Source of the DNA: Candidatus Uhrbacteria bacterium
GTDB lineage: Bacteria; Patescibacteriota; Patescibacteriia; GWA2-47-26
Direction: 5' to 3'
Assembly (NCBI GenBank): GCA_016187515.1
Contig: JACPJN010000008.1
Location: 4,525-68,524 of the forward strand
DNA length: 64,000 bases
The translations under genes were made by a program, and so were the position numbers. Under the pieces are notes generated by a model. The model made no database searches and was not told where the DNA came from. It saw only the letters and a list, made by a program, of their open reading frames with translations. Positions 28,293 through 52,350 of this stretch are shown here, one piece after another (positions within the stretch are counted from its first letter, which is position 1; each line of letters opens with the position of its first letter).

Positions 28293-28364
28293 TCCGGGGT
28301 GGCGCAGCGGTAGCGCAGCTCCCTGTTAAGGAGTTGGTCGTGGGTTCGAATCCCACCCCCGGAG
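28293..28364 (+). tRNA. tRNA-Asn (anticodon GTT)
   Basis: Manual cloverleaf: acceptor TCCGGGG/CCCCGGA, D arm GCGC-AGCGGTA-GCGC, anticodon arm GCTCC-CTGTTAA-GGAGT, T arm GTGGG-TTCGAAT-CCCAC, discriminator G. 72 nt. Confidence 0.85.
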
Positions 28365-28510
28365 CCTGAAACTTACTATGTTCCATGTATATATCATCCA
28401 AAATCTTACTCGTGGTACGCGTTATGTGGGTAGTGCCGAGGATGAGGAATCCCACTCTCGGAGGCATAGTGAGAATTAAATTTCAATATTCTTCACTCGA
28501 CCCCCAAGCC

Positions 28511-28557
28511 CAACCGGGCTGATTTTTGTTTTTGAGGTGGTAGAGTGGGGGAATATG
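28511..28557 (+). promoter_or_regulatory. conserved box: small terminator hairpin (AGCCCAACCGGGCT) + TTGATT-17nt-TAGAGT promoter-like spacing, ending GGGGGAATATG (probable leaderless start). Copies at 29551-29599, 29841-29913, 31165-31213; variant at 28753-28809
   Basis: Four to five near-identical copies. Each precedes either an S element or a cassette gene ATG. Confidence 0.4.
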
Positions 28558-28580
28558 TTTGAAATACAAAACAAAGTGCA

Positions 28581-28752
28581 TTCTGCAATTCTGCGGAATC
28601 GCAGACCAAGAGGTGGGGAGGTGGGGGTCAACTCAATATCACCACCGCATCCCCCAAATGTCATCCCCGAGCGGCATCGGGGATCCAGTCAATTTCCCCT
28701 CTCCGACCGAGGTCGGAGGGATTAAGGCCTGCCTGCGCAGGCAGGGGTGGTT
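28581..28752 (+). repeat. S element copy 1: ~170-nt GC-rich structured repeat with four predicted hairpins
   Basis: TCTGCGGAATCGCAGA, TCCCCGAGCGGCATCGGGGA, CTCCGACCGAGGTCGGAG, GCCTGCCTGCGCAGGCAGG. About 90-95% identical to 29621-29820 and 30891-31089. Confidence 0.7.
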
Positions 28753-28806
28753 TTACTGCTCAAAGAGGGTTTACTTCAATGCTAAAAAGTGGTAGGATGG
28801 GGGAAT

Positions 28807-29415
28807 ATGAATCAGGAGGAAATTAAAAAGTTCTTGGAGTCATTTCAATCAAGGCAAGACAGGACTATCGTGATTGTTGATTATGGAAATGTAGAAAAGT
28901 GGAAAAATAGCTTAGGTTGGAAAGTTGGTATTAAGCAGTTGGGTAATCTTGTAAAACACTTTTCCAGCGGCAAGCAATTTTTACGTAGATTCTACTACGG
29001 GTCAGATTATGGGAAGAATGAGCGATCAACTTTGCGGTCCGAGTGGTCACGCTCGGCTACCGATCGCGCAAAGATGAACCGTTTTGAGGTGGTGACGAAA
29101 CGCGTCAAATGTATGCATAGCCAATCCAGCAAATATGGCTTTGAAAAGAAATGCGACTTAGATGTGGAGATGACCGTTGATCTTATCAAGGAGCGTGATA
29201 ATTATGACACGATTATTATCTTTTCAGGTGACGGAGACCTAATGTATGCAATTCGATATTTACGCGACATGTATGACAAGAAGTGTATTGTGTTTGGAGC
29301 CCGCGGACATATTGGGAGAGAGGTATTTGATGCGAAAGTTGAGGGGTTTGTAAATAATATTTTGTTTGCTGATGACTTTGAATATCGCCTTAATGACGCA
29401 CGATTTCGATGCTAA
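28807..29415 (+). CDS. NYN-domain (LabA-like, PIN-fold) putative RNase; cassette gene 1
   Basis: IVIVDYGNV ... CDLDVEMTVD ... IIIFSGDGDLMYA acidic motifs of NYN/LabA domains. Start taken at the ATG of the conserved box (ORF-track GTG at 28789 is in frame). Confidence 0.65.
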   Translation: MNQEEIKKFLESFQSRQDRTIVIVDYGNVEKWKNSLGWKVGIKQLGNLVKHFSSGKQFLRRFYYGSDYGKNERSTLRSEWSRSATDRAKMNRFEVVTKRVKCMHSQSSKYGFEKKCDLDVEMTVDLIKERDNYDTIIIFSGDGDLMYAIRYLRDMYDKKCIVFGARGHIGREVFDAKVEGFVNNILFADDFEYRLNDARFRC

Positions 29416-29620
29416 AAATCAAAAACCCGCCCAAATAGGCGGATTTTGATCAAAATGGGGTAAGCCCAAAGCTTACATTAATAATGTATCAAGCAAGCGC
29501 TGATTTGTCAATAGTTTTATCCACATGCGGTTTTTGGTTGAAAATCAGGCCATTCGGGCTTGAGTTTTTGTTTTTGAGGTGGTAGAGTGGGGGAATATGG
29601 CAATGCACAATTGAACACTC

Positions 29621-29855
29621 GGTCTGCGATTCGCGCGAATCGCAGACCGAGAGGTGGGGAGGTGCGGGTCAACTCAATATCACCACCGCATCCCCCAAAT
29701 GTCATCCCCGAGCGGCATCGGGGATCCAGTCAATTTCCCCTCTCCGACCGAGGTCGGAGGGATTAAGGCCTGCCCGCCAATCGCCTGACGGCTCAAGCCG
29801 GATGGCAGGCGGGGGTGGTTGCCAACCGCCCGCCCCAAGCCCCAATCGGGCTTGA
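29621..29855 (+). repeat. S element copy 2 (with an extra 3' extension carrying a GGTTGCCAACC hairpin and a terminator-like AGCCCCAATCGGGCT + T-run)
   Basis: Aligns with copies 1 and 3. An indel in the GCCTGCC..GGCAGG arm. Confidence 0.7.
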
Positions 29856-29910
29856 TTTTTTGTTTTTCAAGGGTTTACTTCAATGCTAAAAGGTGGTAGA
29901 GTGGGGGAAT

Positions 29911-30627
29911 ATGAATGAGGAGGAAAAAATAAGAGAGATGGCCATCGAGTTTGCGAAGCGAAATAAAAAGCGTATCGCAAAAGTACTGACTGATCCAAAG
30001 GTGTATGCGCCGGATCCTAATCCGATATCGGTGTTTATGGCTGGTTCTCCCGGCGCGGGGAAAACGGAATTGTCAAAAAACCTGATTGATCTTTTGGAAC
30101 GGGAACGAGAGCGCCGCGTCATTCGTATTGATGGCGATGAAGTCCGTCCGCTTATCCCCGGATATACCGGGGTAAATTCAAACTTATTTCATGGCGCTAT
30201 ATCTCTTATCGTTGAAAAAATGCAGGATTTGGCGTTGCATCAAGGTCAAACGTTTATATTGGACGGAACCATGGCAAATACTAATAAAGCAGTTGATAAT
30301 GTGCAGAGGTCGCTCGATAAGAATCGCACGGTTATAGTGTTTTATGTTTACCAACGACCCGAAGTCGCTTGGCAGTTTACACAAGCTCGCGAAGCGAAAG
30401 AAGGAAGGAATATACCCAAGTCGGCATTTATTGAACAATTCTTTGGTGCAAAGGATACCGTGCGCCGCGTTCATGAATTATTTCCAAGGAACGTAATGAC
30501 GTTTCTCGTAAAAAAGGATTTCAAAAATCGGACAGTTGAACATGTTAAGCTTGAGCATTCCGGTGCCGCGCTTGACACATATATCGGGGAGACGTATACT
30601 AAAGATGAACTTGAGCAACACTTATGA
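29911..30627 (+). CDS. zeta-toxin-like P-loop kinase (AAA/Zeta_toxin family); cassette gene 2
   Basis: Walker A MAGSPGAGKTEL, Walker B-like FILDGT, and overall similarity to zeta toxin / UDP-GlcNAc kinases. Confidence 0.6.
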   Translation: MNEEEKIREMAIEFAKRNKKRIAKVLTDPKVYAPDPNPISVFMAGSPGAGKTELSKNLIDLLERERERRVIRIDGDEVRPLIPGYTGVNSNLFHGAISLIVEKMQDLALHQGQTFILDGTMANTNKAVDNVQRSLDKNRTVIVFYVYQRPEVAWQFTQAREAKEGRNIPKSAFIEQFFGAKDTVRRVHELFPRNVMTFLVKKDFKNRTVEHVKLEHSGAALDTYIGETYTKDELEQHL

Positions 30628-30806
30628 AATTATTCAATATTTTTAAAAAACCAACTGAAGCCAAGCGTTCAGGGGGTTTTTCCGATTTCTTTTTGCATGC
30701 AAACGAAGAAGAAAAACGCAGAGTTATTGAAGAGGCCGCGCGGCGGGCCAACGAGGATCAACGCCGTCTGGTTGAACAATACGAAGCCCAAAAGAAAACC
30801 GCCTAA
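30624..30806 (+). CDS. small charged protein (60 aa) translationally coupled (ATGA overlap) to the zeta-like kinase; possible cognate antitoxin/partner
   Basis: Overlapping stop/start. Highly charged, helical sequence EEEKRRVIEEAARRANEDQRRLVEQYEAQKK. Confidence 0.35.
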   Translation: MKLFNIFKKPTEAKRSGGFSDFFLHANEEEKRRVIEEAARRANEDQRRLVEQYEAQKKTA

Positions 30807-30821
30807 CCCGGGCGGTTTTTT
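30795..30821 (+). terminator. rho-independent terminator (ACCGCC-TAACCCG-GGCGGT + TTTTTT)
   Basis: Stem-loop plus T-run; contains the stop codon of the small ORF. Confidence 0.6.
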
Positions 30822-30890
30822 AGTACATCATAGAAACAGCCATGCTCACAGCTCACAAATCACCAAGCTCACAAAGGGCTTGATTTTTTC

Positions 30891-31089
30891 TATTCTGCGA
30901 TTCTGCGGAATCGCAGACCAAGAGGTGGGGAGGTGCGGGTCAACTCAATGTCATCACCGCGCCCCCCAATGTCATCCCCGACCTGATCGGGGATCCAGTC
31001 AATTTCCCCTCTCCGACCGAGGTCGGAGGGATTAAGACCTGCCCGCCAATCGCCTGACGGCTCAAGCCGGATGGCAGGCGGGGGTGGTT
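30891..31089 (+). repeat. S element copy 3, followed by a half copy of the family-1 palindromic element (31111-31150) and the conserved box
   Basis: Aligns with copies 1-2. A frame-breaking difference relative to copy 1 shows it is non-coding. Confidence 0.7.
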
Positions 31090-31210
31090 GCAAACAATCC
31101 GCCAATCAATTCCTCCCCTTAAGGTAAGGGGAGGCGAGGAGGGGTTATGCTTCCGTCTCAATCCCAATCGGAGTTGATTTTTTGTTTTTGAGGTGGTAGG
31201 ATAGGGGAAT

Positions 31211-31915
31211 ATGGAGGACACAAATCAAACTACAAACAAGGCCTTTACAATCCATGATCTGCCTTTTGAGGAGCGTCCGCGAGAGCGACTGGCGCAACTT
31301 GGTGAACAAGCGCTTTCAGCACAGGAATTGTTGCAGATTATTCTTGGCCGAGGCGTGGCCGGAGAATCAGTCGCGGTAACTTCCCAAAAGTTAATTTCAC
31401 GCTTTGGCAGTCTTCCAAAACTATCCGAAGCAAGTGTTGAAGAATTATCGCAGATAAAAGGCATTGGTCTTGCGAAAGCCGCTCAAATTAAAGCCGCGTT
31501 TGAAATCGGGCGGCGGGTTTCCACGCAGACCGCGCCTTACAAAAGCAAAGAGCTGAATGATCCTGAAAAAGTATTTCGGCTGATAAAAAGCAAACTCAAG
31601 GATTATCACAAAGAGCATTTTTACATTATTCCCATCAATAGTAGGAATTGGTCGGTGGCGGAAGTATCCATTGGCACACTTAACGCCAGCTTAGTGCATC
31701 CCCGCGAGGCATTTTCGCAAGCGATAAAGGCGAACGCCGCCTCGGTAATTTTCGCGCACAACCACCCGTCCGGAGATCCTGAACCTTCCGAAGACGACCT
31801 TGCAATCACAAAACGACTGGTTGAGGCGGGAAAACTGCTAGGAATTGAAGTGTTGGATCACCTTGTTGTCGTTCAAAATGGATTTTTTAGTTTCAAGGAG
31901 AAAGGCCTGATTTAG
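31211..31915 (+). CDS. radC: RadC-like JAB/MPN domain protein (UPF0758); cassette gene 3
   Basis: HhH region (GIGLAKAAQIKAAFEIGRR) and JAMM-like motif SVIFAHNHPSGDPEPSEDDLAITKRL. Confidence 0.75.
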   Translation: MEDTNQTTNKAFTIHDLPFEERPRERLAQLGEQALSAQELLQIILGRGVAGESVAVTSQKLISRFGSLPKLSEASVEELSQIKGIGLAKAAQIKAAFEIGRRVSTQTAPYKSKELNDPEKVFRLIKSKLKDYHKEHFYIIPINSRNWSVAEVSIGTLNASLVHPREAFSQAIKANAASVIFAHNHPSGDPEPSEDDLAITKRLVEAGKLLGIEVLDHLVVVQNGFFSFKEKGLI

Positions 31916-32052
31916 TTATACACAGCCGGAGTTTGACAGAATTCAGGATGTACATTATTATGTACATATCATCATTTTAAAAATGATGCGGGATAAAACC
32001 CTGTAAAAATGTTTCTCGCAGTACGTAACTGCAGTTAACAAACGGAAACGCT

Positions 32053-32424
32053 ATGAATACTAAGACCACCATATCCATATCCGAGGCAAGGAAAAATATT
32101 TTTGACATCGCAGATGATGTTCAAAAACCAAATAATTATTACACACTAACCGAAAACGGACGGCCTAAGGCAGTCATTCTTTCGGCTGAAGAATTTGAGT
32201 CATGGCAGGAAACTCTTGAGGTAATGCGCGATTTTCCGGATTTGGATAAGGACGTAAAGGAAACGGATCGTGCGGTTGCAAGCGGTGAATGCAAGAAATG
32301 GGCGACTCTTGATGATATTCTTGCCAAAGAAGGATATATTGTGGCGGACCGGCCTAAACAAAAATATGGAGTATCAACTAAGGTTCAAATCAAGCGCGGA
32401 AAGAGAGTTAGAAAAAATAGATAG
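32053..32424 (+). CDS. Phd/YefM-family type II antitoxin
   Basis: N-terminus TISISEARKNIFDIADDV..YTLTENGRPKAVILSAEEFESWQETLEV is typical of YefM/Phd. Confidence 0.65.
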   Translation: MNTKTTISISEARKNIFDIADDVQKPNNYYTLTENGRPKAVILSAEEFESWQETLEVMRDFPDLDKDVKETDRAVASGECKKWATLDDILAKEGYIVADRPKQKYGVSTKVQIKRGKRVRKNR

Positions 32425-32617
32425 TCGTTATAAACCCCGCATCCTTGAGGCAATCGTCAGCATTAGGCAGGATCCCTATATTGGCAAGAAATTAGAGGGG
32501 GATAGAAAAGGAGAATGGTCATATCGCGTATGGCCATATCGTATTATTTATCGCATTTACAAACACGAATTGTTGATAATCATCATCCGCATCGGGCACC
32601 GGCAGGGGGTGTATTAA
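32366..32617 (+). CDS. RelE/ParE-family type II toxin (overlaps the antitoxin 3' end in another frame)
   Basis: C-terminal WSYRVWPYRIIYRIYKHELLIIIIRIGHRQGVY matches RelE/ParE. Start taken at the internal ATG 32366 of the 32270 ORF. Confidence 0.6.
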   Translation: MEYQLRFKSSAERELEKIDSRYKPRILEAIVSIRQDPYIGKKLEGDRKGEWSYRVWPYRIIYRIYKHELLIIIIRIGHRQGVY

Positions 32618-32620
32618 AAT

Positions 32621-35023
32621 ATGACACAATATAAAAATCTGGAAGAAAAAATTGGTGCATACCTGGACAGCAATGAAAAACAGACTGTCAATTTTAAGGC
32701 CAGTGATTGGAGTGTTGTGTATGGTAATAAAATTAAACAGCATAAGGTTGTAAATAAAGTTACAGGAGATGAGGAATTTGTACGAATGTATTTGGTTTCA
32801 AAATTAGTGAACGAATTAGGGTATAAAGATGAAAATATTGAACTCGAAAAAACTTACCAAGCAGGACGACCCAAAACTATAAAGCCTAGGATTGACGTTA
32901 TTGTAAAAGATTCAAAAGGCAATCCTTTCTTTTTTATAGAGATTAAAGCTCCTGAAGAATTTGAAGCGGGTAAAAGTTTGATTGAAGATCAACTCTTCGG
33001 GTTGGCGGCGTTGGAGGAGGGAAAGTACGGTACGAATATAAAATATTTAGTTTACTTTTCAGTTGACGTCAATGATGTTGGTGCAATTAGAGATAAGTTA
33101 ATTGTGATTGATTACCAAAAATACCGTACATATGAGGTATGGGAAAAAGATGGTTTTCTGTCAGTAGCGGATGAATTGCCCGCGCGATACGAAATGGCAC
33201 AGAAAGAACCCTATATAAAAGGTGGCAAGAAGGATTTACTAAAAACTTTTGATAAAACTGATTTGAATTCCTTACGTGCAAACTTGCACAATGTACTATG
33301 GGGTGGTGGCGGTACAGATGATAATGACGTATTCGCCTATTTGGTAAATATAGTATTGGCCAAGATTCAAGATGAAGGTGAAAAAGCAGATGGTGAAAAA
33401 TATGATTTTCAGATCTTTACCTATGAAAAACAAGGGGGTGAAAAGTTTGAAAGCGATGAAGAGCTTTTCGAGAGAATTAATGGACTATATAGGCGAGCAC
33501 TCAAACAAAGACTGTATATAACCGATGAGGCGAAGTTAAAAAAGAGTTTTGTTATTGATGAAAACAAATTTTCTTTGAACAAATTAAAATATGCGGTTGG
33601 TGCATTAGAAAAATATTCTTTTGTTGATGGAAAAAATAATTTTGATGGCAAAGATATTTTGGGCGACTTTTTTGAGGGTATTATTCGTGAGGGGTTTAAA
33701 CAGACAAAGGGTCAATTTTTTACGCATATCAATGTGGTCCGGTTCATGCTTTGGGGTCTGCAGCTTGATAAGCTCGCCATTGAAAGGGTAAATAAGGATG
33801 TTGAACTGCCGTATCTTATTGATCCAAGTGCAGGCAGTGGCACATTTCTTATTGAATACATGAAATTTATTACTGACAATCTCAAGCGGAGATTTAGGAA
33901 TCAACTTGCGAAAAAACGAGATGTCGAGGATAAATTTCATCAGTGGTTTTTACCAGACCATCGTGAGAATAAATGGGCAGAAAAATTTATCTACGGTGTA
34001 GAGATAAATTTTAATCTCGGAACTGCTACTAAGGTGAACATGATCCTGCATGGTGACGGTTCCACCAATGTTTTTGTCAAGGATGGTCTTTTGCCATTTC
34101 GATTTTATGATAAGGAGACGGCACCGAATTTTCTTAAGCAATACGAGGAAGAAAAGACGTATTTTGATAAGGAGGTAAATGCGCAATTTGATGTAGTCAT
34201 TAGCAATCCACCCTTTAGTGTTGATTTGGATAATGAAACAAAAAAGAGTGTGAAGAAGGAGTTTATCTTTGGTGATAAAAAGAACTCGGAAAATTTGTTT
34301 ATAGAAAGGTGGTATCAATTACTGCGTGAAAATGGCCGACTAGGAGTTGTTTTGCCCGAAAGCGTGTTTGACACCACGGAAAACAAATATATCCGCCTGT
34401 TCATCTATAAATATTTCAAAGTAAAAGCAGTCGTGAGTTTGCCCCAGCTTACCTTTGAGCCATTTACTTCCACTAAAACCAGCCTGCTTTTCGCCCAAAA
34501 GAAAACCAAAGCAGAAATAGAAGAATGGAATAAACTCTGGAGCAAATACTCAAACGAATGGAGCGCGCTCAAAACCCGATGTGAAAATCTACTTGCTGTA
34601 TACCTTGAAGACAAAGACAGAAAAAAACTGCCCTCGATTAAGGATCTGAAAGAAGCTGAAGAAAAGCAAATTCTCGCGCGAATGCTCAAGGATTATCTTG
34701 AAGAAGACGACAAGAAGCTTTCTGCTAAGGCGCTGGTAGAAAAGTATCAAGACGAGCTCAAAGAGCTTTGCAAATACGATAATGACACCAAGGACGCATT
34801 TGGCTTTGTAAATACTTGGTGGGTATTTGGCGAAGTGGCAAAAGAGCTCAATTACAAAATCTTTATGGCGGAAGTGGAAAATGTGGGCTACAAGCGCACC
34901 AAGCGCGGCGAAAAACCGATGTCAAACGAACTATATCGCACAAACAGCAAGGGTGAGATTTTGATTGATGACGGCGAAACCAGAACCGCGCTGGATTATA
35001 TGAGAAAAATTGAGTGGGAGTAA
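32621..35023 (+). CDS. restriction-modification enzyme: N-terminal PD-(D/E)xK nuclease-like domain (HsdR_N-like, ..RIDVIVKD..FFFIEIK..) fused to a gamma-class N6-adenine DNA methyltransferase
   Basis: MTase motif I IDPSAGSGTFL and motif IV VISNPPF. N-terminal D..EIK nuclease motif. Followed by a specificity-subunit gene, giving a Type IIB/IIG- or Type I-like architecture without a separate HsdR. Confidence 0.7.
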   Translation: MTQYKNLEEKIGAYLDSNEKQTVNFKASDWSVVYGNKIKQHKVVNKVTGDEEFVRMYLVSKLVNELGYKDENIELEKTYQAGRPKTIKPRIDVIVKDSKGNPFFFIEIKAPEEFEAGKSLIEDQLFGLAALEEGKYGTNIKYLVYFSVDVNDVGAIRDKLIVIDYQKYRTYEVWEKDGFLSVADELPARYEMAQKEPYIKGGKKDLLKTFDKTDLNSLRANLHNVLWGGGGTDDNDVFAYLVNIVLAKIQDEGEKADGEKYDFQIFTYEKQGGEKFESDEELFERINGLYRRALKQRLYITDEAKLKKSFVIDENKFSLNKLKYAVGALEKYSFVDGKNNFDGKDILGDFFEGIIREGFKQTKGQFFTHINVVRFMLWGLQLDKLAIERVNKDVELPYLIDPSAGSGTFLIEYMKFITDNLKRRFRNQLAKKRDVEDKFHQWFLPDHRENKWAEKFIYGVEINFNLGTATKVNMILHGDGSTNVFVKDGLLPFRFYDKETAPNFLKQYEEEKTYFDKEVNAQFDVVISNPPFSVDLDNETKKSVKKEFIFGDKKNSENLFIERWYQLLRENGRLGVVLPESVFDTTENKYIRLFIYKYFKVKAVVSLPQLTFEPFTSTKTSLLFAQKKTKAEIEEWNKLWSKYSNEWSALKTRCENLLAVYLEDKDRKKLPSIKDLKEAEEKQILARMLKDYLEEDDKKLSAKALVEKYQDELKELCKYDNDTKDAFGFVNTWWVFGEVAKELNYKIFMAEVENVGYKRTKRGEKPMSNELYRTNSKGEILIDDGETRTALDYMRKIEWE

Positions 35024-35966
35024 ATCTATGTTTAAGCTTTGGAGTGAGCAAAATAATGAGGCGAAACAATTACTGAGTCCCAACCTTGATTTAAGGAGTT
35101 GGGACGATCTTTCAAATGAAGAAAAGGAAAAGATGTGGAATTTCCTTAAAGAATGGTTTAATCGCGAGGATGACCCGCGAGTTTTACTCGCGATTATTCA
35201 TTTAAATGAAGTGCATAAATTTAGGTCGTATGCGAGGGCGACGTTAGAGCATCCTTCTCCGAGGAGTTCCTCTGCGGATTTTAAGAATATATTTTTTAAT
35301 GAGAGCCGCCATGTTGTATTAGAATGCTTATCCTGCTTTTGCAAATCTGTTCTCGACGAACGCCGGCGTGATAGCGGGAGAATTTATCGACATGATTATG
35401 ATTCAGATGAAGAATACATGGAGGCATTGACCAGATGGCGATTTAACGAATTTGATAAATTCACAGAGAGAATCAATGATGTCTTTGAACATTTCAGTAT
35501 TAATTTGATTCTTACTCGAAGCGGATTTATTGATAGACAGGATCCGAAAGTAGTGCAGGAAATTTATGTACCAGTTTTAAATTTTCTTTCCTTGCCGAAA
35601 TGGAGAGATGTTAACAGAGACCTCAGTGATGCCTTCAAGGAATATCAAATAAAGACCGCGCAGAGTTATAGTAATTGCATCACGCATGCGGTCTCAGGCG
35701 TGCAGGCTTTTTTGCAGATTTTGGTGCATGAGCAAACAGGCGGCGAATATGGTATTAGCAACCTTATAAAACAAGCGCAAGAAAAAGGTCTCATTCCGGA
35801 GGATAAATTTTCCAATGCCATTTTTAAAAACGTAGAAACAATTTTGATGGGTGAGAGAGGGAAAACTGGAGATGCTCATCCAAAGCAAGAATATGCGAAT
35901 GAAAAGAACGCTCGTTTGGTCTTAAATTTGATTATGATATTCATCCAGCACTGTATTCAGAAATAA
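35010..35966 (+). CDS. hypothetical 318-aa protein embedded between the MTase and S genes; candidate accessory defence gene
   Basis: 14-nt overlap with the MTase stop; the S gene starts 3 nt after its stop (tight operon). No recognisable motif. Confidence 0.4.
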   Translation: MSGSKSMFKLWSEQNNEAKQLLSPNLDLRSWDDLSNEEKEKMWNFLKEWFNREDDPRVLLAIIHLNEVHKFRSYARATLEHPSPRSSSADFKNIFFNESRHVVLECLSCFCKSVLDERRRDSGRIYRHDYDSDEEYMEALTRWRFNEFDKFTERINDVFEHFSINLILTRSGFIDRQDPKVVQEIYVPVLNFLSLPKWRDVNRDLSDAFKEYQIKTAQSYSNCITHAVSGVQAFLQILVHEQTGGEYGISNLIKQAQEKGLIPEDKFSNAIFKNVETILMGERGKTGDAHPKQEYANEKNARLVLNLIMIFIQHCIQK

Positions 35967-35968
35967 CT

Positions 35969-37426
35969 ATGTCACTAAAACAATTTACAACTGACTTTCG
36001 GGAATTAGCTCAAGATAGTTTTTTGAGAAGTGACGAGAAATACCATGTCTTTTTAAATTCATCAGACTGGAATTTATTCGGTAACAAAGACAAAGATTTG
36101 GTAGCACTGAGAGACATTTTGATTGATGACTACCAAAATTTTAAATATGACGAGGGCGAGGAGTACAAAGGAATCCCGACAGGACAAACATATTTGGACG
36201 AAGACGGTTATATCAAAAGTTTCGATTTAGTAACGGCCGAAGATCATCCTGGGAGGTTGAAATATAGAGTTTCAAATGACAATATTCTTATTTCAAGCTT
36301 GAGATTGGCAAAATCTCCCGCTTTGTATTTTGAAAAAGAATATTTGGCTGGTTATGTTTTTTCAAACGGCTTTTATATCTATAAAGTCAAAGAGGGATGG
36401 AACAAGAAATTTCTTTTGTATATTTTACGGACAAAACGATTAAAAAGTATTTTGGATAATAACATCTATAGGGGCATTGGAATTTCTGCATACAAAGATG
36501 ATGATTTAAAGAAAATAAAAATTCCTCTAGTTTCAAAATCTACCCAAGACAAAATCGTTGCACGAATTGAGCCAATTGAGAAGAGGATTAAAGAGCTCAA
36601 AAATCAGATCACGCCGCCGCAGGAGGTTATCAATGAAGTTTTTGCACGAGAGTTTAAGTTTGATTTAAAGAAGTTTGAGGAACTAAAGAATATCAAGAAT
36701 TATTATCTTGAGCTGTCTAAATTTGCGGACAATAGAGATATTCGGCAAAGCGTTAAATTTCACAGAGAAGCAGGGGCATTTGTGATAGATCAGTCGAAAA
36801 AAGTTACCAACAAAAAAATAAAGCATTTTTTGGCGGAGCCGATCGTGCTTGGTAAAGGCGTTTCGCCTTCAAATTATGACGAGAATGGTGACTACTTCTA
36901 TGTTTCAATGGCGAATATCAAAAACTGGAAATTCGAAAGCGAAGATTCAAAATTAGTTTCAAACGAATATTCAAAAAAAAATCAGAACAAAACAGTTGCA
37001 AAAAACGATATTTTAATCGCCCGTTCCGGCGAGGGAACTATAGGGAAAGTCGCGCTAATTGACGATGAAGATTTGAAGGGAATTTTTGCCGATTTTACAA
37101 TGCGAGTTAGATTGCAAAATTATGCCCCTTTGTTTGCTTATTATTATTTTAGAACTGAATATTTCCAGTATTTAGTCGAGGTGAATAAAAAAGGACTTGG
37201 AAACAATACCAACATTTTCCCGAGCCAGATTCAGGAATTTCCGATGATTGATGTTTCTCTCAAAAACCAGCAAAAAATTGTGGCCGAAATCAAGACGGAG
37301 CTGGACGCGCAGGAAGAAATGAACCGAAAAATTGAAACCGAGCGAAATAAAATAGATGAAATCATAGAAAAGCTGATCCAGCATGCGAGATATCAACCCA
37401 CACCAGAACGGTTTTACAGCCCTTGA
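35969..37426 (+). CDS. hsdS: restriction system specificity (S) subunit with two target-recognition domains
   Basis: Two variable regions separated and followed by conserved coiled-coil repeats (IKELKNQI.., IVAEIKTELDAQEEMNRKIETERNKIDEIIEKLI) typical of HsdS. Confidence 0.7.
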   Translation: MSLKQFTTDFRELAQDSFLRSDEKYHVFLNSSDWNLFGNKDKDLVALRDILIDDYQNFKYDEGEEYKGIPTGQTYLDEDGYIKSFDLVTAEDHPGRLKYRVSNDNILISSLRLAKSPALYFEKEYLAGYVFSNGFYIYKVKEGWNKKFLLYILRTKRLKSILDNNIYRGIGISAYKDDDLKKIKIPLVSKSTQDKIVARIEPIEKRIKELKNQITPPQEVINEVFAREFKFDLKKFEELKNIKNYYLELSKFADNRDIRQSVKFHREAGAFVIDQSKKVTNKKIKHFLAEPIVLGKGVSPSNYDENGDYFYVSMANIKNWKFESEDSKLVSNEYSKKNQNKTVAKNDILIARSGEGTIGKVALIDDEDLKGIFADFTMRVRLQNYAPLFAYYYFRTEYFQYLVEVNKKGLGNNTNIFPSQIQEFPMIDVSLKNQQKIVAEIKTELDAQEEMNRKIETERNKIDEIIEKLIQHARYQPTPERFYSP

Positions 37427-37465
37427 CTTTGTGTAGTTAATCAGTATAATGATTAGACAATTGCT

Positions 37466-38359
37466 ATGTCAGATCCATTTACAATTCGTATATTTGTTCC
37501 GGAGGGCGATCCGGAAGGGATTCGTATTATTGATCGCCTTAATTCGACAGGTACTTTTTTTGCATTTCCAAGAGCAAAATGGGCGCAAATGCGCAATCAT
37601 GAAAAACTTAATCAAGCCGGAATTTATATTTTAAACGGTTATGCAAATCCGGACGATGAATTGCCGACTATTTATGTTGGTCAAGCAGATGTAGTTAAGA
37701 ATAGAATTGAGCAGCATACGCGGAATAAAGATTTTTGGGACAAAGGAGTGGTGTTTGTTTCTTCAAACATGAATGTGACATACGCAAAGTGGCTTGAGTA
37801 TGCCCTAGTTAAGCAAGCATCGGAGGCTGGACGGAGTATACTTGAAAATGGTAATAATCCGCAGGAGCCCAACATTTCTGAATCGGAAAAAGCGGACATG
37901 CAAGTTTTTCTAAAGGAAATCTATCAGACATTACCGCTCGTTGGTCTGAGTGCATTTGAGATACCTAAGACAGTTGCGAAGCCGGAGACAGTGCGCCAAG
38001 AACATGCCAGCGATAGAGATACGATTGTGGTTCCGGCTCAAGAGGATGGATTTAAGCGGGTATTCCTCGGAGAAAATGCGTGGTGGTCTGTTCGCATATC
38101 CGGCGGCATGCTTGATAAGATTCGATATATCGCAGCATATCAAGTCGCACCAATAAAAGCCATTACACATATTGCTCAAGTGAATCGTATTGAACCGTAT
38201 GGTGAAGAGGGAAAATACAAATTAATCTTTACAGAGCCCGCAAGGCGTTTGGATAATCCAATTCCATTTGGCAATGCGCCACAGGGGATGATGCAAGGTC
38301 CAAAATACACGAATTTTGAAAAATTGAAGAAGGCAAAACAATTAACGGATCTTTTTTAA
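37466..38359 (+). CDS. GIY-YIG nuclease-family protein with an uncharacterised C-terminal domain
   Basis: GIYILNG..TIYVGQA..VKNRIEQH matches the GIY / YIG / catalytic Arg-Glu pattern. Co-oriented 39 nt after the S subunit gene. Confidence 0.55.
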   Translation: MSDPFTIRIFVPEGDPEGIRIIDRLNSTGTFFAFPRAKWAQMRNHEKLNQAGIYILNGYANPDDELPTIYVGQADVVKNRIEQHTRNKDFWDKGVVFVSSNMNVTYAKWLEYALVKQASEAGRSILENGNNPQEPNISESEKADMQVFLKEIYQTLPLVGLSAFEIPKTVAKPETVRQEHASDRDTIVVPAQEDGFKRVFLGENAWWSVRISGGMLDKIRYIAAYQVAPIKAITHIAQVNRIEPYGEEGKYKLIFTEPARRLDNPIPFGNAPQGMMQGPKYTNFEKLKKAKQLTDLF

Positions 38360-38385
38360 GTGTGTAGTGAATTTAACCCCGCACA

Positions 38386-38557
38386 CTCATCCTTACAAAC
38401 TCCAGTATTTAAGGATGAAAGTGGTCATACAGATTTTTGCACTGGATAGAGGGCCTTGCGCCGGATTCCGTGGCCTGCCCCCACACCAATTTTAGAAATA
38501 TTGGTGTGGGGGCAGGCCGCGAGGCATTTGTGCTTATATATTTTTTCCGTGGATGAT
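38386..38557 (+). repeat. R2 element copy 1 (~170 nt: CCTTAAAT..ATTTAAGG hairpin, then a 20-bp perfect stem GCCTGCCCCCACACCAAT-TTTAGAAAT-ATTGGTGTGGGGGCAGGC, then a T-run)
   Basis: Direct repeat of 39769-39939 (~90% identical). A partial third copy of its first arm at 38703-38740, followed by a partial S element at 38744-38790. Confidence 0.6.
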
Positions 38558-38915
38558 CATGTGAAATCTCTCCCACCCCCTCTAACTCCCCCTCGGGCAG
38601 GGGGAGAAATTTTATTGGGCAGGAGGGGAAAGTGATAACCGAATACTCGCCAAAAGATTTTAAAAATTTTTAATCCCACACCCCAAACTCCCAACCCCAA
38701 ACCATCCTTAAATTCTCAAGTATTTAAGGATAAAAAATCTCCATTCTGCGATTCCCTCCTACGGCGGACAGGCGCGCGAATCGCAGAATGCCGCAGTGGA
38801 CAGGCACACGTTAAGCGGGGTAGGCAGGAATCCAAAACGCGTCACCATTGGCGCGTTTGTGCATATACTTGACATTTTCCTTCATTTATGAAACAATGTC
38901 TTCAGGAGGAAAACA

Positions 38916-39623
38916 ATGGAAAATCGTTCATTTTCATTTGATACATACCAGGCCACACATCCAAAGACCGATGCGGTGTGGAAAGCACTTTGCGCCGGCC
39001 CGCTTCGTGCGGCAATTCAAGCCACGTTGAAGCTGTTCGTCGAAGATGCTTGTCGGTTTTTTGTCATCCATGCGGGGCAAGTACAGACCCTATCGCATGA
39101 TCAGCGCATTGAATTGTACTACCTTCATTACATTAGCCCTTTGTGTTCGCCGGGAAGCCTTCCAGATACCAAACCCCGCGAGGTATTCTCACGGGTACTC
39201 ATTGCCGCGATTACTGAATTCGTGGATTTGGAATCCGGACGTACATTCCCCGGCGCCAAGAGTCGCAAAGTTACCTTAGGCGAAGTCCATGAAACAAGTT
39301 TCGGGGGTGATGCCTCGGGTGAGAATGGTATAAGGATTGTGGATGCGGAAATTGAATTACTGCGGCATGTGTGGGATGAACTCTGCCAGCTAAAGGAGGT
39401 ATCGGATCTTGAGGATCGGACCGCAGGGGCGCCGGTTCTGAATTTTCCGTCGTCGTTGGATAGCGAATTCTGCGCGGAGGAGTTTTCCAGCGTGTGTATG
39501 GGTTCGTTCCTGCGTGTCCTTGTGGACAATATTCTCCACCTGTATGATTATTTCGGTGATCCGCAGTACGTGCGAGAAATGGCGGAGCAAGCGGCGCGCG
39601 AGGAAGCCAGATCTGGTAACTAG
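38916..39623 (+). CDS. hypothetical protein (235 aa), GC-rich, flanked by R2 direct repeats
   Basis: Strong RBS GGAGGAAAACA before the ATG. No recognisable motif. Confidence 0.4.
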   Translation: MENRSFSFDTYQATHPKTDAVWKALCAGPLRAAIQATLKLFVEDACRFFVIHAGQVQTLSHDQRIELYYLHYISPLCSPGSLPDTKPREVFSRVLIAAITEFVDLESGRTFPGAKSRKVTLGEVHETSFGGDASGENGIRIVDAEIELLRHVWDELCQLKEVSDLEDRTAGAPVLNFPSSLDSEFCAEEFSSVCMGSFLRVLVDNILHLYDYFGDPQYVREMAEQAAREEARSGN

Positions 39624-39768
39624 CCTATAAGGAGGGGTGCTCGACATTGCGCCGCACGACCCGGCATTTTGCCGTGGTCTTTTTTTGTAAAATGACCCAG
39701 AATTTCTTGACACCACCCCTCGCCGGGCGGGGGAGTGGGCGGATGTTCCACCCCCCCCCCAACACCAA

Positions 39769-39939
39769 CTCATCCTTAAATTCTCAAGTATTTAAGGATG
39801 AAAGTGGTCATCAGATTTTTACATTGTATAGACGGCCTTGCGCCGGATTCCGTGGCAAGCCCCCACACCAATTTTAGAAATATTGGTGTGGGGACAGGCC
39901 GCGAGGCAGTTGTGCCTATACATTTTTTCCGTGGATGAT
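39769..39939 (+). repeat. R2 element copy 2, preceded by a C10 homopolymer (39751-39760)
   Basis: Aligns with 38386-38557. Confidence 0.6.
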
Positions 39940-40016
39940 TAGGATGGCATATAGTCCCGCGTACGACACTTTGTCTCGCGCGCTTGTTGGTATTTGATGG
40001 CGATGGTATACTATAG

Positions 40017-40529
40017 GTGTATATGGTAAAAAATCCCAAAATTAACGAGAAAAAGTACCGCAATGCCGTGCTTTTTTTCGCGAATAAGATTCGCAATGGT
40101 ACACTGGGCAAACTGAAGCTGATGAAGCTTTTGTATTATCTTGATTTTGATTTTTTTGAGAAGTATGGCCGGTCGGTGACTGGAGACGAATATTTGCGTT
40201 TTGAAAATGGGCCGGTACCACGGATGGCCGAGAAGACATTAAAGCGGATGCGGGGCAAGGAAATAAAAATTGTGAACCGCAAGATGCAAAAAGGATATAA
40301 TGATCAGCAGCACATTGAGCCGCTTATCACATTTGATCCAAGTTCTTTTTCACGAGAAGAAATTTTGATGATGGAAGAAATTGCTGATAAGTGGGAGAGG
40401 TTTACCGGAACGGAAATGAAAAGTGCGAGTCATGGTGAAGCGCCATGGATCGCCACAAAGCCGAACGATGTTATTGACTATAATCTTTCGTATTACCGCA
40501 ATAAATATGCCGAGATGGAACGGCTTTAG
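40017..40529 (+). CDS. Panacea-domain (DUF4065, SocA/PanA-like) putative antitoxin
   Basis: KLKLMKLLYYLDFDFFEKYGRSVTGDEYLRFENGPVPRM matches the DUF4065 core (KLQKLLYF....G.pl..d.f.aw.GPV). Confidence 0.6.
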   Translation: MYMVKNPKINEKKYRNAVLFFANKIRNGTLGKLKLMKLLYYLDFDFFEKYGRSVTGDEYLRFENGPVPRMAEKTLKRMRGKEIKIVNRKMQKGYNDQQHIEPLITFDPSSFSREEILMMEEIADKWERFTGTEMKSASHGEAPWIATKPNDVIDYNLSYYRNKYAEMERL

Positions 40530-40535
40530 TGTGGT

Positions 40536-40871
40536 ATGGAAATTTCTCGGCACGATGCTATTGAAAAAGATTTTCGTGCGTTAAGACGTTCTGCCGCGCC
40601 GCAAGAATCGCTTGAGGCATGGGAACGCCTTTTTTGTTTAAAGGGGTTACGGGAAACGCCGGCAATTGACGCGTTCCCCGGGTTTGGCGGGCGGAAAATT
40701 TTCAAAGGGCGAGTGGTGCCGCTTAAAGAAAATGTGGGCAAGTCAAAAGGGTATAGGGTTATTTTTGAGATGGTTCATGAAAGTCATTGTATCATTTTGG
40801 TTTTTTCGCGACATGGCGTGTACCATACTGAAACGGAGCTAGTTGCGCTAATTAAAGAACGCCTTCATTAA
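40536..40871 (+). CDS. putative RelE/ParE-fold toxin partner of the Panacea antitoxin
   Basis: C-terminal KSKGYRVIFEMVHESHCIILVFSRHGVYH resembles the RelE/ParE/HigB C-terminal strand motif. 7-nt intergenic gap. Confidence 0.45.
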   Translation: MEISRHDAIEKDFRALRRSAAPQESLEAWERLFCLKGLRETPAIDAFPGFGGRKIFKGRVVPLKENVGKSKGYRVIFEMVHESHCIILVFSRHGVYHTETELVALIKERLH

Positions 40872-41009
40872 AAGGGCGCTTGGGAGTGTTTACGGGAACT
40901 TGGTCAACGGGCAGGGGGAGAAATTTTAATGGGCAGGCGCTAGCCATCCTTCGACCGACGGTTGCTGTGGATAAGCAGATGTTGTACAATGCCACAATAA
41001 AAAATAAAT

Positions 41010-41201
41010 GTGGATAGCTTTAATATGCACGATCTTTCCTGCGCGACCTGCGGCTCGCTTGCCGAGGGGTTTAAGTGCGCCGCGTGCGGAATTGAACAGG
41101 ACGAGTTTGAGGCCGGGCATTTGTGCGGCGACGAGCACCTGATGCCGAAATGCTCGATCTGCAGCGAGGCCGAAACCGAATGCAATTGCGATAGTTTATA
41201 G
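41010..41201 (+). CDS. small Cys-rich protein (63 aa, 9 Cys: CxxC, CxxC, CxxC, CNC) - zinc-ribbon-like
   Basis: Cys spacing read directly from the translation. Followed by a strong terminator. Confidence 0.4.
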   Translation: MDSFNMHDLSCATCGSLAEGFKCAACGIEQDEFEAGHLCGDEHLMPKCSICSEAETECNCDSL

Positions 41202-47986: not shown

Positions 47987-48113
47987 CCATGTACCTTCGA
48001 ACAGTCGGTTCTCTCGCGGAGCCGGCTCTTTTCTTTTTTTGTGAAATTTGGTAGTGTGTTGGCATAACCCCTCCTCGCCTCCCCTTACCTTAAGGGGAGG
48101 AAATTGTTAGAGT

Positions 48114-49337
48114 ATGCAGCAGGTCTATGTAGTGCATTATCATGAAATCGCCTTAAAGGGCCGGAATCGGCCGGATTTTTTGCGGCAGCTGCAGGAAAAT
48201 ATTTGCCGGGCAACCGGGCTTCGGAAGGGGAGTGTGAAGATTGTGTCGGGGCGGCTACTGGTGCGACCCCCTCTTAATCTCCCCCTTGAAAAGGGGGAGA
48301 AAATTGTTCGCGCATTGCAACGGACGTTTGGGATTTCTTCGTTTTCACCGGCGGCGCTTGTTAAGGCGGAGTATGGAGAGATTGTGCAAGCAGTAAAAAG
48401 CTCCATAGTTCCAAGTATGGAACTTTTTACCAAGTGGAATACTTTTGCAATTAGAGCCACGCGCGGGGATAAAGAGTTTTCCCTGACCTCTAAGGAAATT
48501 GAAGTCAAGCTAGGAGATTTTGTGCGTGAAAAGTTTAAGAAAAAAGTGGATCTTGAAAGTCCGGATGTTACATTTTATGTTGAAGTTTTTTCCGCCAAAG
48601 GCGGATCCGCCTCGGGAGGACCCGGTGGCGCCGTGGTGTATACCGAAAAAATTCCTGGTCCGGGCGGTCTGCCGGTTGGCACGCAGGGAAAAGCGGCCGT
48701 GATGCTCTCGGGCGGCATTGATTCGCCAGTGGCCGCCTATCGCATATTAAAACGCGGCGCACCGATTGTGGGTGTGCATTTTCATAGTTACCCATTTACT
48801 TCTCGCGCTTCAATTGATAAAGTAAAAGAGCTGGCCGGAGTACTGGCGCGATATGGCGGCCCATTTAAATTGTTCCTGGTCCCGCTTACCGACGCGCAAA
48901 AAGCCGTAATACAGAATTGCGAGGAACGTTATCGCGTGCTGCTATATCGGCGGCTGATGGTGCGGATTGCGCAGGAACTGGCGCGCCACGAAGGCGCGCA
49001 AGCGTTGGTTACCGGGGAAGCGCTCGGGCAAGTCGCTTCGCAGACCATTGAAAACATCGGGGTAACGGACGCGGCCGCAACACTGCTCATCCTGCGCCCG
49101 CTTATCGGCTATGACAAAGAGGAAATCATCGCGGAGGCAAAACGCATCGGCACGTACGAAATTTCCATCCTGCCGCATGATGATTGCTGTACCATAATGA
49201 TGCCGAAAAATCCCGCTACCCGGGCGCGGCTTTCGGATGTGGAGCGAGAAGAAGTAAAGTTGGAGGTGAGTCGTCTTATTGATAACGCATTAGAATGCGC
49301 AGAACTCATAACCCTCCCCAGCCCTCCCTTATCTTAA
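48114..49337 (+). CDS. thiI: tRNA 4-thiouridine synthase ThiI (THUMP + PP-loop) carrying three repeat insertions
   Basis: PP-loop SGGIDSPVAAY. Insertions: 48265-48305 (PPLNLPLEKGEKI), 48595-48625 (GGSASGG mini-palindrome), and the last 10 codons plus stop lie inside element 49307-49394. Confidence 0.8.
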   Translation: MQQVYVVHYHEIALKGRNRPDFLRQLQENICRATGLRKGSVKIVSGRLLVRPPLNLPLEKGEKIVRALQRTFGISSFSPAALVKAEYGEIVQAVKSSIVPSMELFTKWNTFAIRATRGDKEFSLTSKEIEVKLGDFVREKFKKKVDLESPDVTFYVEVFSAKGGSASGGPGGAVVYTEKIPGPGGLPVGTQGKAAVMLSGGIDSPVAAYRILKRGAPIVGVHFHSYPFTSRASIDKVKELAGVLARYGGPFKLFLVPLTDAQKAVIQNCEERYRVLLYRRLMVRIAQELARHEGAQALVTGEALGQVASQTIENIGVTDAAATLLILRPLIGYDKEEIIAEAKRIGTYEISILPHDDCCTIMMPKNPATRARLSDVEREEVKLEVSRLIDNALECAELITLPSPPLS

Positions 49338-49401
49338 GGGAGGGAGACGATCGCGATCCCCCTCTTAAGGTACGAGGGGGTAGGGGGAGTTATGAATTAA
49401 T

Positions 49402-52240: not shown

Positions 52241-52350
52241 TTCAATAAAACTCCTCCCCTTAAGATAAGGGGAGGTTGGGAGGGGTTATGACAATTGACA
52301 TAACTCCCCCTGCCCCCTCTTACCTTAAGAGGGGGGATGCATTGGCAAAT

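Follow-up and report, generated by a model that had tools for sequence, protein, structure and literature searches.

The locus is a BsaXI-family Type IIB restriction-modification (R-M) system accompanied by a HEPN gene and a separate predicted nuclease, and it is one more case of an arrangement already known rather than a novel type of system. An ORF check confirmed the four open reading frames recognized in the preliminary description, all on the + strand, intact and full length. The genes of the block had a GC content of 0.36–0.42 versus about 0.52 in the flanking housekeeping genes, forming a low-GC island. Taken as a whole, a Type IIB R-M system with a swappable HEPN cargo, an independent GIY-YIG protein and a RadC/toxin-antitoxin head is the likely explanation, and the locus would then be a horizontally acquired, composite defence island made of separable modules. 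The interpretation in the preliminary description is partly supported; to call the locus unusual was an overstatement, since a short (<800-aa), knob-only clade of fused RM proteins was predicted, not characterised, in 2025 (Shen et al. 2025, PMC11997821), and HEPN/Abi genes, including those of AbiJ type, had been noted within R-M operons in 2013 (Anantharaman et al. 2013).

The closest characterised relative, BsaXI, is a Type IIB R-M enzyme of Geobacillus with cryo-EM structures available (PDB 8w0p, 8w2p and 8w2q; Shen et al. 2025, PMC11997821; Xu lab 2022, PMC9159934), described as two genes, RM before S, that probably form one transcription unit. The same two-gene design with RM first was found here. 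Upon phmmer comparison with 8w0p_A (E=1.3e-292), the 800-aa RM subunit (32621..35023, +) aligned over residues 5–774 with residues 2–773 of 916 in BsaXI, with 59.2% identity over 764 residues. Both proteins have the same domain order, namely a PD-(D/E)xK nuclease, a helical connector, a gamma-class N6-adenine methyltransferase (MTase) and a knob, and the Pfam matches of the 800-aa protein were to HSDR_N_2 (residues 51–112), N6_Mtase (residues 344–635) and Eco57I. The motifs quoted earlier were all present: RIDVIV at residue 90, FIEIK at 105, DPSAGSGTFL at 401 and NPPF at 529. The active-site segment of the nuclease, E76...D92...E107-x-K109 (32846..32947, +), mapped onto BsaXI E73, D90, E105 and K107, each of which is essential in that enzyme, as alanine mutants abolish cleavage. 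The MTase motifs are likewise shared with BsaXI; motif I (residues 401–410) to motif IV (residues 529–532) is encoded by 33821..34216 (+), and P402, G405, G407 and N529–F532 were unchanged in 121 of 121 homologs.

The 485-aa S (specificity) subunit (35969..37426, +) contains two Methylase_S stretches (Pfam) and has the TRD1-CR1-TRD2-CR2 layout of S.BsaXI, in agreement with the two-TRD subunit proposed earlier. Its residues 102–469 aligned with S.BsaXI (8w0p_C, E=1e-10), the CRs being conserved and the TRDs diverged, which suggests that its recognition site differs from that of BsaXI. As judged from sequence homology, the assignment of the RM/S pair to Type IIB logic rather than classical Type I is supported. 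Because the pair is a close homolog of a characterised Type IIB enzyme, no HsdR is expected, and, as had been reported, no HsdR/ResIII-type ORF was found within the window (the whole 64-kb stretch of DNA analysed); the other large ORFs there encode LigA, a UvrD-family helicase, DnaG, a T2SSE ATPase, a methionyl-tRNA synthetase-like protein and a Wzy_C-domain protein of the O-antigen ligase family. By analogy with BsaXI, RM and S would assemble as (RM)2S, in which recognition of a bipartite site would fall to S. The gamma-class MTase of each RM would methylate one adenine, and its N-terminal PD-(D/E)xK domain would cut unmodified DNA, thereby excising the site.

An extra gene between RM and S sets the locus apart from BsaXI. 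Its longest version is a 318-aa ORF with a TTG start (35010–35966), which had been described as translationally coupled between the M and S genes; however, the most likely start is the ATG at 35028, giving a 312-aa protein (35028..35966, +). This ATG is located 4 nt past the RM stop codon, with GGGAG as its ribosome-binding site, more than 100 homologs start with MFKLWSE, and the identical NCBI protein is 312 aa long. With this start the gene abuts RM and the 14-nt overlap disappears, but the packing is still very tight, with gaps of 4 nt after RM and 2 nt before S.

The statement that this protein has no recognisable domain holds for Pfam only, in whose current release no family, Abi_C included, matched the 312-aa protein or any of 39 members of its family at E<=0.01. 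Structure prediction, in contrast, gave a confident model with a HEPN fold, in which the signature R277-GKTGDA-H284 (Rx6H; 35856..35879, +) lies where the penultimate helix ends and in the loop ahead of the last helix; R277 and H284 were invariant in 39 diverse homologs. Weak matches to NCBIfam CBY_0614 (the AbiJ-NTD4 prototype; 19 bits versus a cutoff of 150) and to PADLOC PDC-S32 were also obtained, and for many homologs an Abi_C label had been precomputed. In the literature searched, the PADLOC candidate PDC-S14 is named in three papers, apparently genome or phage-resistance surveys, and PDC-S32 in none. The protein resembles the AbiJ / Abi_C (PF14355) / STM4504/CBY_0614 families in pairing an N-terminal sensor-like domain with a C-terminal HEPN domain in which R and H are conserved, whereas its motif spacing is Rx6H and its scores are far under the curated cutoffs; the term "AbiJ-like" is therefore based on fold, motif and weak profile matches. 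On these grounds we place it among AbiJ-like HEPN proteins, and the fold and invariant Rx6H agree with the earlier view that the gene occupies a slot of the Abi/anticodon-nuclease type. It would presumably be a latent RNase that, on a presumed trigger, provides a second, abortive-infection layer of defence. The gene is probably co-transcribed with the R-M genes, and the N-terminal domain of the protein would serve as its autonomous regulator.

Comparison with 135 related loci (80 obtained with the RM query and 55 with the HEPN query) suggests that this gene is a swappable cargo rather than a subunit. Among the 54 sister RM loci in which S could be placed, RM and S were directly adjacent in 28, and 1–3 genes intervened in the remaining 26. 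Only 4 sister RM loci, one of them without a placed S, carried the 312-aa family; elsewhere the slot was occupied by OLD nucleases, Schlafen/AlbA_2, Mrr, UvrD-like helicases, DUF6119, HerA-like proteins, RhuM, SMODS, SduA_C, AIPR or Fic. Cargo and RM identities were incongruent, as at locus L027 (RM 81%, S 89%, cargo 44%), and the nearest cargo homolog (71%) is located in a Type III operon.

PrrC/EcoprrI and RloC are HEPN anticodon nucleases of Type I R-M operons, and there too a HEPN protein with an Rx4-6H motif is encoded within the operon; this fits a defence in two layers, with abortive infection as the backup of restriction. By analogy, the RM/S complex might physically keep the HEPN protein inactive until a phage anti-restriction protein disabled the Type IIB enzyme and released a suicide RNase, for which PrrC/EcoprrI is a precedent among HEPN nucleases. 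The 4-nt and 2-nt gaps flanking the gene, the location of every R-M-embedded homolog directly 3′ of an MTase-bearing gene on the same strand, and the embedding of all the nearest homologs (60–71% identity) in R-M loci are in line with such a guard, and this tight packing and constant position would also fit a functional coupling to R-M. However, the 312-aa protein is much smaller than PrrC and RloC and is devoid of their ABC-ATPase N-terminal domain, and the R-M operon that harbours it is of Type IIB rather than Type Ic. Its homologs are found with structurally unrelated partners, i.e. a BsaXI-type RM, a second RM fusion (only 26% identical) accompanied by an S, and the Mod of Type III Mod-X-Res operons, which is hard to reconcile with one latent-complex interface. 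In addition, about three-quarters of the family (41 of 55 loci) had no R-M system of these kinds nearby, so these members must be self-regulated, and the RM-S slot is elsewhere empty or filled by many unrelated effectors. A family mostly outside R-M operons and otherwise associated with several R-M types leaves a PrrC-kind latent complex unproven and less likely, and we regard the guard as rather improbable.

The RM protein also differs from BsaXI in length (800 aa versus 916 aa for the solved chain, or 911 aa according to the cloning paper) and in having no C-terminal paddle, the element that carries D816 and E823 in BsaXI. It thus belongs to the short, knob-only clade; 116 of its 120 nearest homologs were 790–809 aa long. 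Since D816 and E823 are required for cleavage by BsaXI, cleavage by an enzyme without a paddle might be altered or inefficient, and in the extreme case loss of the paddle would have abolished cleavage, leaving a decayed system that is a methyltransferase only. In favor of this, the BsaXI paddle mutants D816A (with a low partial activity retained) and E823A lose cleavage, and no enzyme of the short clade is known to cut. Against it, E76, D92 and K109 were invariant in all 121 short-clade proteins and E107 was present in 119, although the nuclease domain is the most divergent part of the protein (mean identity 54%, versus 86% for the MTase), which indicates purifying selection on nuclease activity. 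Moreover, the clade is large and distributed over several phyla, and every gene at the locus is intact. We therefore consider decay very unlikely. Even less credible is a role of the 312-aa protein as a subunit, structural or functional, of the restriction enzyme, such as a trans-acting substitute for the missing paddle: it begins exactly where RM ends relative to BsaXI, whose cleavage requires the paddle, but the 28 sister loci with adjacent RM and S have paddle-less RMs and no extra gene, unrelated genes fill the slot at other loci, the fold is HEPN and not a long two-helix paddle, homologs occur alone and in Type III operons, and S in BsaXI is held by the knob and the MTase, not by the paddle.

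The last gene (37466..38359, +), located 39 nt past the S stop codon, encodes a 297-aa protein with the GIY-YIG nuclease domain reported earlier (approximately residues 1–160) followed by a PUA-like domain of EVE/ASCH/YTH type (approximately residues 185–297); it had no Pfam match, and no solved chain resembled it detectably in sequence. In the preliminary description it was taken for the actual or an additional nuclease of the R-M system, in keeping with its strand, its proximity and the lack of a predicted terminator between S and this gene. This is now hardly tenable, since the PD-(D/E)xK site of RM itself is fully conserved, a near-consensus candidate promoter (TTGACT-16-TATAAT, 11/12; 37423..37450, +) overlaps the S stop codon and ends 15 nt 5′ of the ORF, no homolog was present in the 80 RM or 55 HEPN loci, homologs with 65–72% identity have unrelated neighbourhoods (ThsB-TIR/Type III, RVT_3/NERD, and ABC-transporter genes in an archaeon), and a C-terminal PUA-like reader is a hallmark of Type IV enzymes. 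A GC hairpin that resembles a terminator, with a T run after it, was located 3′ of the gene (38586..38606, +); this element and the promoters were assigned solely by consensus match, in a CPR host.

The 297-aa protein is instead predicted to be a stand-alone Type IV modification-dependent endonuclease. It is similar to PUA-fused Type IV enzymes (EVE/SRA-HNH proteins such as VcaM4I/TspA15I, the GIY-YIG-EVE fusions of Bell et al. 2020, the 5hmC-specific GIY-YIG protein PD-T4-3, and the PADLOC candidate PDC-S14) in combining a nuclease and a PUA-like reader of modified bases within one polypeptide, in being a single gene with no cognate MTase of its own, and in belonging to a family scattered among defence genes; it differs in order, the nuclease being N-terminal and the reader C-terminal. 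Independent and putatively transcribed from its own promoter, it most likely restricts DNA with modified bases, its presumed substrate. If both enzymes are active, the m6A that the adjacent MTase introduces must be tolerated.

On the other side of RM, the left boundary drawn earlier was too tight, as RadC and Phd/ParE are part of the conserved module. Upstream of RM lie genes for a RadC/YicR-type protein (31211..31915, +; UPF0758_N, HhH and RadC JAB domains; Pfam RadC, 1.7e-40) with an intact HxHx7Sx2D motif (HNHPSGDPEPSEDD), a Phd/YefM-family antitoxin (32053..32424, +; PhdYeFM_antitox, 1.7e-14) and an 83-aa ParE/RelE-family toxin (32366..32617, +; ATG at 32366; ParE_toxin, 2e-14), whose stop lies 3 nt ahead of the RM start codon. 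A putative promoter (TTGACA-17-TATTAT, 11/12; 31933..31961, +) precedes the Phd gene. Of 64 related loci, 23 had a RadC homolog 5′ of RM in the same orientation, 19 of them within 60 nt, and no shared synteny extended beyond RadC on this side. The order RadC-Phd-ParE-RM recurs in two loci (L062 and L081), and RadC-Phd-ParE precedes a Type III Mod in another (L001). RadC and the Phd/ParE addiction module would form the front of the operon and move along with it. It was not expected that RadC, with or without Phd/ParE, would stand at the head of the operon in many relatives, and it was also noticed that the presence of RadC correlates with that of cargo (p=7.5e-5).

Four ORFs had been described at 32621–38359, and all of them were found on the + strand in a mechanical ORF list: the nuclease-methyltransferase (MTase) fusion RM (800 aa, 32621–35023), an embedded ORF of 318 aa when read from a TTG (35010–35966), the specificity subunit S (485 aa, 35969–37426) and a GIY-YIG protein (297 aa, 37466–38359). 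The length of the embedded ORF needs correction; its true start is almost certainly the ATG at 35028, which gives 312 aa, because homologs of the protein begin with MFKLWSE and the identical protein deposited at NCBI has 312 aa. This ATG lies 4 nt past the RM stop and has GGGAG just upstream, and S starts 2 nt beyond the stop of the embedded gene. On the other side, ParE, preceded by Phd and a near-consensus promoter, ends 3 nt upstream of the RM start. The R-M block lies in a low-GC island, with a GC content of 0.36–0.42 versus about 0.52 in the flanking housekeeping genes; other large ORFs in the window encode LigA, a UvrD-family helicase, DnaG, a T2SSE ATPase, a methionyl-tRNA synthetase-like protein and a Wzy_C-domain protein (O-antigen ligase family). 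The island, at about 31.2–38.6 kb, reads as RadC, followed by a promoter with Phd-ParE-RM, a HEPN cargo gene and S, and then by a second promoter with the GIY-YIG/PUA gene.

Pfam analysis of RM revealed HSDR_N_2, N6_Mtase and Eco57I domains, that is, an N-terminal PD-(D/E)xK nuclease fused to a gamma-class N6-adenine MTase as in Type IIB enzymes. A PDB sequence search matched RM to RM.BsaXI (8w0p, E=1.3e-292), with residues 5–774 corresponding to residues 2–773 of the 916-residue BsaXI chain at 59.2% identity over 764 aligned positions. BsaXI itself has been characterised as a Type IIB enzyme; it forms (RM)2S and cleaves DNA on either side of AC-N5-CTCC. In the BsaXI literature its residues E73, D90, E105 and K107 were found essential for cleavage by alanine scanning; in our alignment they correspond to E76, D92, E107 and K109 of RM. 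Both DPSAGSGTFL and NPPF were present, and the motifs quoted earlier for the 800-aa protein were confirmed in its sequence. S is HsdS-like, having two TRDs and two coiled coils with two Methylase_S stretches in Pfam, and aligns with S.BsaXI over residues 102–469; the CR helices are conserved and the TRDs diverged, so that the recognition sequence would differ from that of BsaXI. The preliminary description had proposed Type IIB logic and no separate HsdR. The former is supported by the homology to RM.BsaXI, the catalytic residues, the MTase motifs and the S.BsaXI-like S, and the latter agrees with our finding no HsdR or ResIII ORF among the ORFs of the 64-kb window. Judged from sequence, this R-M system is a further member of the known BsaXI family.

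The embedded protein had been considered to have no recognisable domain. Pfam was indeed blank at E≤0.01, both for the 312-aa protein and for 39 members of its family, which gave spurious weak matches only (e.g. Forkhead), and a PDB sequence search returned nothing meaningful, but the structure model has a four-helix up-down HEPN fold, and R277-x6-H284, an Rx4-6H motif before the last helix, was invariant in 39 homologs of 39–71% identity. In addition, the protein matched the PADLOC candidate PDC-S32 (7e-8) and, weakly, NCBIfam STM4504/CBY_0614 (6e-4, 19.1 bits versus a cutoff of 150). A database search yielded 134 homologs, and many of these carry Abi_C (PF14355) labels, which are precomputed and probably weak. 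The AbiJ HEPN family was defined by Anantharaman et al. (2013), with N-terminal domains NTD1–5 and CBY_0614 as the NTD4 prototype, and AbiJ-type genes were noted to occur in R-M operons. We infer that the 312-aa protein is AbiJ-like and a latent RNase, the label being "AbiJ-like" rather than AbiJ member because the protein scores below the curated cutoffs for AbiJ, Abi_C and CBY_0614. PrrC and RloC carry an N-terminal ABC/Rad50-like ATPase and a C-terminal HEPN domain, whereas the N-terminal half of the 312-aa protein was modelled as a small helical domain and no P-loop or ABC domain was found in any profile search; because this ATPase domain is absent, the protein is neither PrrC nor RloC.

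To place the embedded gene in context, 55 genomic loci around its homologs were compared, as were 80 metagenomic loci that contain close homologs of RM. S was placed in 54 of the RM loci, where it directly overlapped the RM stop in 28 and was separated from it by 1–3 genes in 26. A HEPN-gene homolog was present in only four RM loci, one of which had no placed S and looks frameshifted. Other occupants of the RM-S slot were OLD-family nucleases, Schlafen/AlbA_2 with HATPase_c_4, Mrr_cat, UvrD-like helicases, DUF6119, HerA-like and ABC-type ATPases, RhuM, SMODS with AGS_C, SduA_C, AIPR and Fic. The suggestion that the embedded ORF occupies the slot of anticodon nuclease and Abi genes stands, with a HEPN gene here and other defence genes in the sister slots. 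Among the HEPN loci, 14 of 55 had the homolog associated with R-M operons: four with BsaXI-type RM/S, three with S and another HSDR_N-MTase fusion (about 26% identical), six with Type III Mod-X-Res, and one with a distant Mod-like match about 9 kb off on the opposite strand. Where embedding was clear (13 cases), the HEPN homolog lay downstream of the MTase-bearing gene on the same strand, either adjacent or with 1–2 small ORFs between. The remaining 41 loci were without these R-M systems, some having TIR, Mrr, Schlafen, GmrSD or Fic genes as neighbours. Identities to the proteins of the window were incongruent: L027 has RM at 81% and S at 89%, with cargo at 44%, and the closest cargo homolog (71% identity) sits in a Type III operon. 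Because the slot is empty or holds other genes in sister loci, the R-M contexts vary and the identities are incongruent, the HEPN gene is best read as a mobile piece of defence cargo that occupies a variable slot, rather than as a dedicated subunit or a surrogate for the C-terminal paddle of BsaXI. Its constant position after the MTase gene would suit a PrrC-type latent complex between the HEPN protein and the R-M enzyme; as R-M partners are absent for the majority of the family and, where present, are of unrelated kinds, such a complex is unlikely, and autonomous regulation via the N-terminal domain is favoured.

The slot held 1–3 unrelated defence genes with very short gaps in roughly half of the short BsaXI-type operons (L056–L135), for example in L059 (3330–4769), L061 (3185–4978), L066 (2841–4967) and L080 (3091–4908). 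Some slot genes were without annotation, such as a 522-aa PDC-M36A-like gene in L056, and the slot may be a source of new defence genes. A conserved 104-aa ORF was located between RM and the HEPN homolog in L117 (3549–3863), L118 (7371–7685) and L005 (7357–7671); in L117 and L118 the homolog was called in fragments (204 aa each, plus 63 aa in L118) and these may be pseudogenes. Standard-code ORF calling failed in L035, L037 and L055 (possibly also L054), which come from Gracilibacteria/Peribacteria and were excluded from the neighbour census. Gracilibacteria use an alternative genetic code in which UGA is a sense codon, and the failed calls of HEPN homologs in these contigs are consistent with such a code.

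RadC (31211–31915, + strand) contains HhH and JAB domains with an intact HxHx7Sx2D motif. Among 64 related loci with enough upstream sequence, 23 had RadC upstream of RM on the same strand, 19 of them within 60 nt. The order RadC-Phd-ParE-RM was repeated in L062 and L081, and in L001 RadC-Phd-ParE precedes the Type III operon with the closest HEPN homolog. The presence of RadC correlated with a filled cargo slot (14/15 loci versus 9/31, Fisher p=7.5e-5). Since synteny among related loci ends at RadC, this gene appears to be the left edge of a shared module and not a chromosomal landmark. The landmark reading, in which RadC would merely stand beside an R-M insertion, was rejected, as hardly any synteny is shared by the window and nine related loci on the upstream side of RadC. 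Mobile elements are known to carry RadC-type JAB proteins, for which a role in nucleic-acid processing is predicted. The close spacing of RadC and RM in 19 loci, the slot correlation and the same head on a Type III operon keep alive a further reading, rather improbable in our estimate, in which RadC (with or without Phd/ParE), the MTase subunit, a hypervariable slot for suicide or defence effectors and S or Res would constitute one carrier unit, the effector being gated by RadC or by the state of the restriction enzyme. If true, Type IIB and Type III systems would come under PrrC logic as well, and RadC would gain its long-missing function.

The alignment with BsaXI ends at BsaXI residue 773 and just 26 RM residues lie beyond it, so that RM (800 aa), unlike the 916-residue BsaXI chain, has no C-terminal paddle, the two-helix bundle that carries D816 and E823, likewise required for cleavage according to the BsaXI literature. 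This absence is not a local truncation, because 116 of the 120 nearest RM homologs were 790–809 aa long. Shen et al. (2025; PMC11997821) described a separate clade of BsaXI homologs shorter than 800 aa, predicted to have the knob without the paddle, and on sequence grounds RM is placed in this knob-only short clade. In 121 short-clade proteins, E76, D92 and K109 were invariant and E107 was kept in 119, while mean identity was 54% in the nuclease domain versus 86% in the MTase. Retention of catalytic residues in a domain diverged to this extent indicates purifying selection on a predicted nuclease activity and argues against RM being a methylase-only remnant. The 2025 BsaXI work did not settle the mechanism by which two double-strand breaks are produced by Type IIB enzymes, nor a catalytic role of the paddle; the locus offers an intact, strongly conserved paddle-less representative. 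The 312-aa ORF was also considered as a frameshifted or split-off RM C-terminus and as a paddle surrogate, and both were rejected, since a short RM is normal for the clade and the ORF encodes a protein with the HEPN fold.

For the 297-aa protein, no match was found in Pfam and nothing meaningful in a PDB sequence search. Its N-terminal 186 residues matched the PADLOC candidate PDC-S14 (5e-53), and the family comprises more than 2,400 database matches of about 295 aa in bacteria and archaea, with an invariant GIY...YVG...R...E...N core, indicating an intact nuclease core. The same chain contains a PUA-like (EVE/ASCH/YTH/SRA) pseudobarrel, as in Type IV enzymes. It had been suggested to be the actual or an additional nuclease of the R-M system. 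Against this, a near-consensus promoter (TTGACT-16-TATAAT, by consensus match only) overlaps the S stop directly upstream of the gene, no homolog was present in the 135 related loci, and homologs at 65–72% identity sit in unrelated contexts. The gene is an independent neighbour of the R-M system, encoding a predicted Type IV endonuclease.

Every component of the island is of a known kind, two of them with close literature precedents, and the layering of restriction, Abi, Type IV and toxin-antitoxin genes is as defence-island theory predicts, with no new principle. What is new is the structural assignment of PDC-S32 (HEPN) and PDC-S14 (GIY-YIG and PUA), two large candidate families that now have confident structural models and clear mutable catalytic residues, together with an intact CPR example of the paddle-less BsaXI clade and, from the comparison of loci, a variable cargo slot of Type IIB and Type III operons that is associated with RadC. 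The link between RadC and the slot could guide searches for new defence genes among CPR bacteria and DPANN archaea.

The stretch at 28293–41200, which follows a tRNA-Asn (28293–28366), looks like a cassette-array island, with all genes on the + strand, most of them of lower GC and separated by repeats, in the order NYN, Zeta toxin, RadC, Phd/ParE, R-M genes, GIY-YIG, a 235-aa gene (host-like GC) and SocA/Panacea with a 111-aa partner. No duplicated tRNA-Asn 3′ end, a mark of integrated islands, was found in the window, and no integrase-sized ORF stood out among the window ORFs of at least 140 aa, only some of which were profiled. A tblastn search of plasmids did not turn up the 312-aa gene, and its sole match to RM was a "Type I M" at 42% identity; viral contigs yielded relatives of neither RM nor the 312-aa family. 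The SocA/Panacea-domain antitoxin-like gene (170 aa) and, 6 nt later, the unannotated 111-aa ORF (40017–40871) are probably another toxin-antitoxin pair of the same island.

An intergenic repeat of about 200 nt (at least about 88% identity) was located at 28580–28775, 29621–29835 and 30892–31105, upstream of the small + strand genes for NYN (28789), Zeta toxin (29893) and RadC (31211), respectively. The first two copies share, within about 100 nt, a leader ...AATGCTAAAA(A/G)GTGGTAG(G/A)(A/G)TGGGGGAATATG running into the start codon, and the RadC copy is followed by a related leader ...TTTTTGTTTTTGAGGTGGTAGGATAGGGGAATATG. Folded as RNA, one copy formed 4–5 hairpins (MFE −113 kcal/mol, z=−5.4 versus shuffles), and Rfam in gathering and permissive modes gave no match; the repeat could be a structured ncRNA or leader, a MITE or a cassette-boundary element. 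A second repeat set (38375–38557, 38690–38735 and 39758–39939) flanks the 235-aa gene (38916–39623) and includes a 46-nt unit in three copies and a 128-nt unit (38430–38557) that recurs at 39812–39939 with 92% identity and holds a long perfect hairpin, GGCCTGCCCCCACACCAAT...ATTGGTGTGGGGGCAGGCC. Outside the island, GC-rich palindromic intergenic repeats with a CATAAC ... GTTATG frame around CCTCCCCTTAAGGTAAGGGGAGG-type hairpins, which could be REP-like, terminator-like or attC-like, were observed at 11750–11832, 45518–45612, 48061–48104, 49305–49387, 51798–51892, 52247–52335, 53789–53867, 54676–54773 and 56945–57062.
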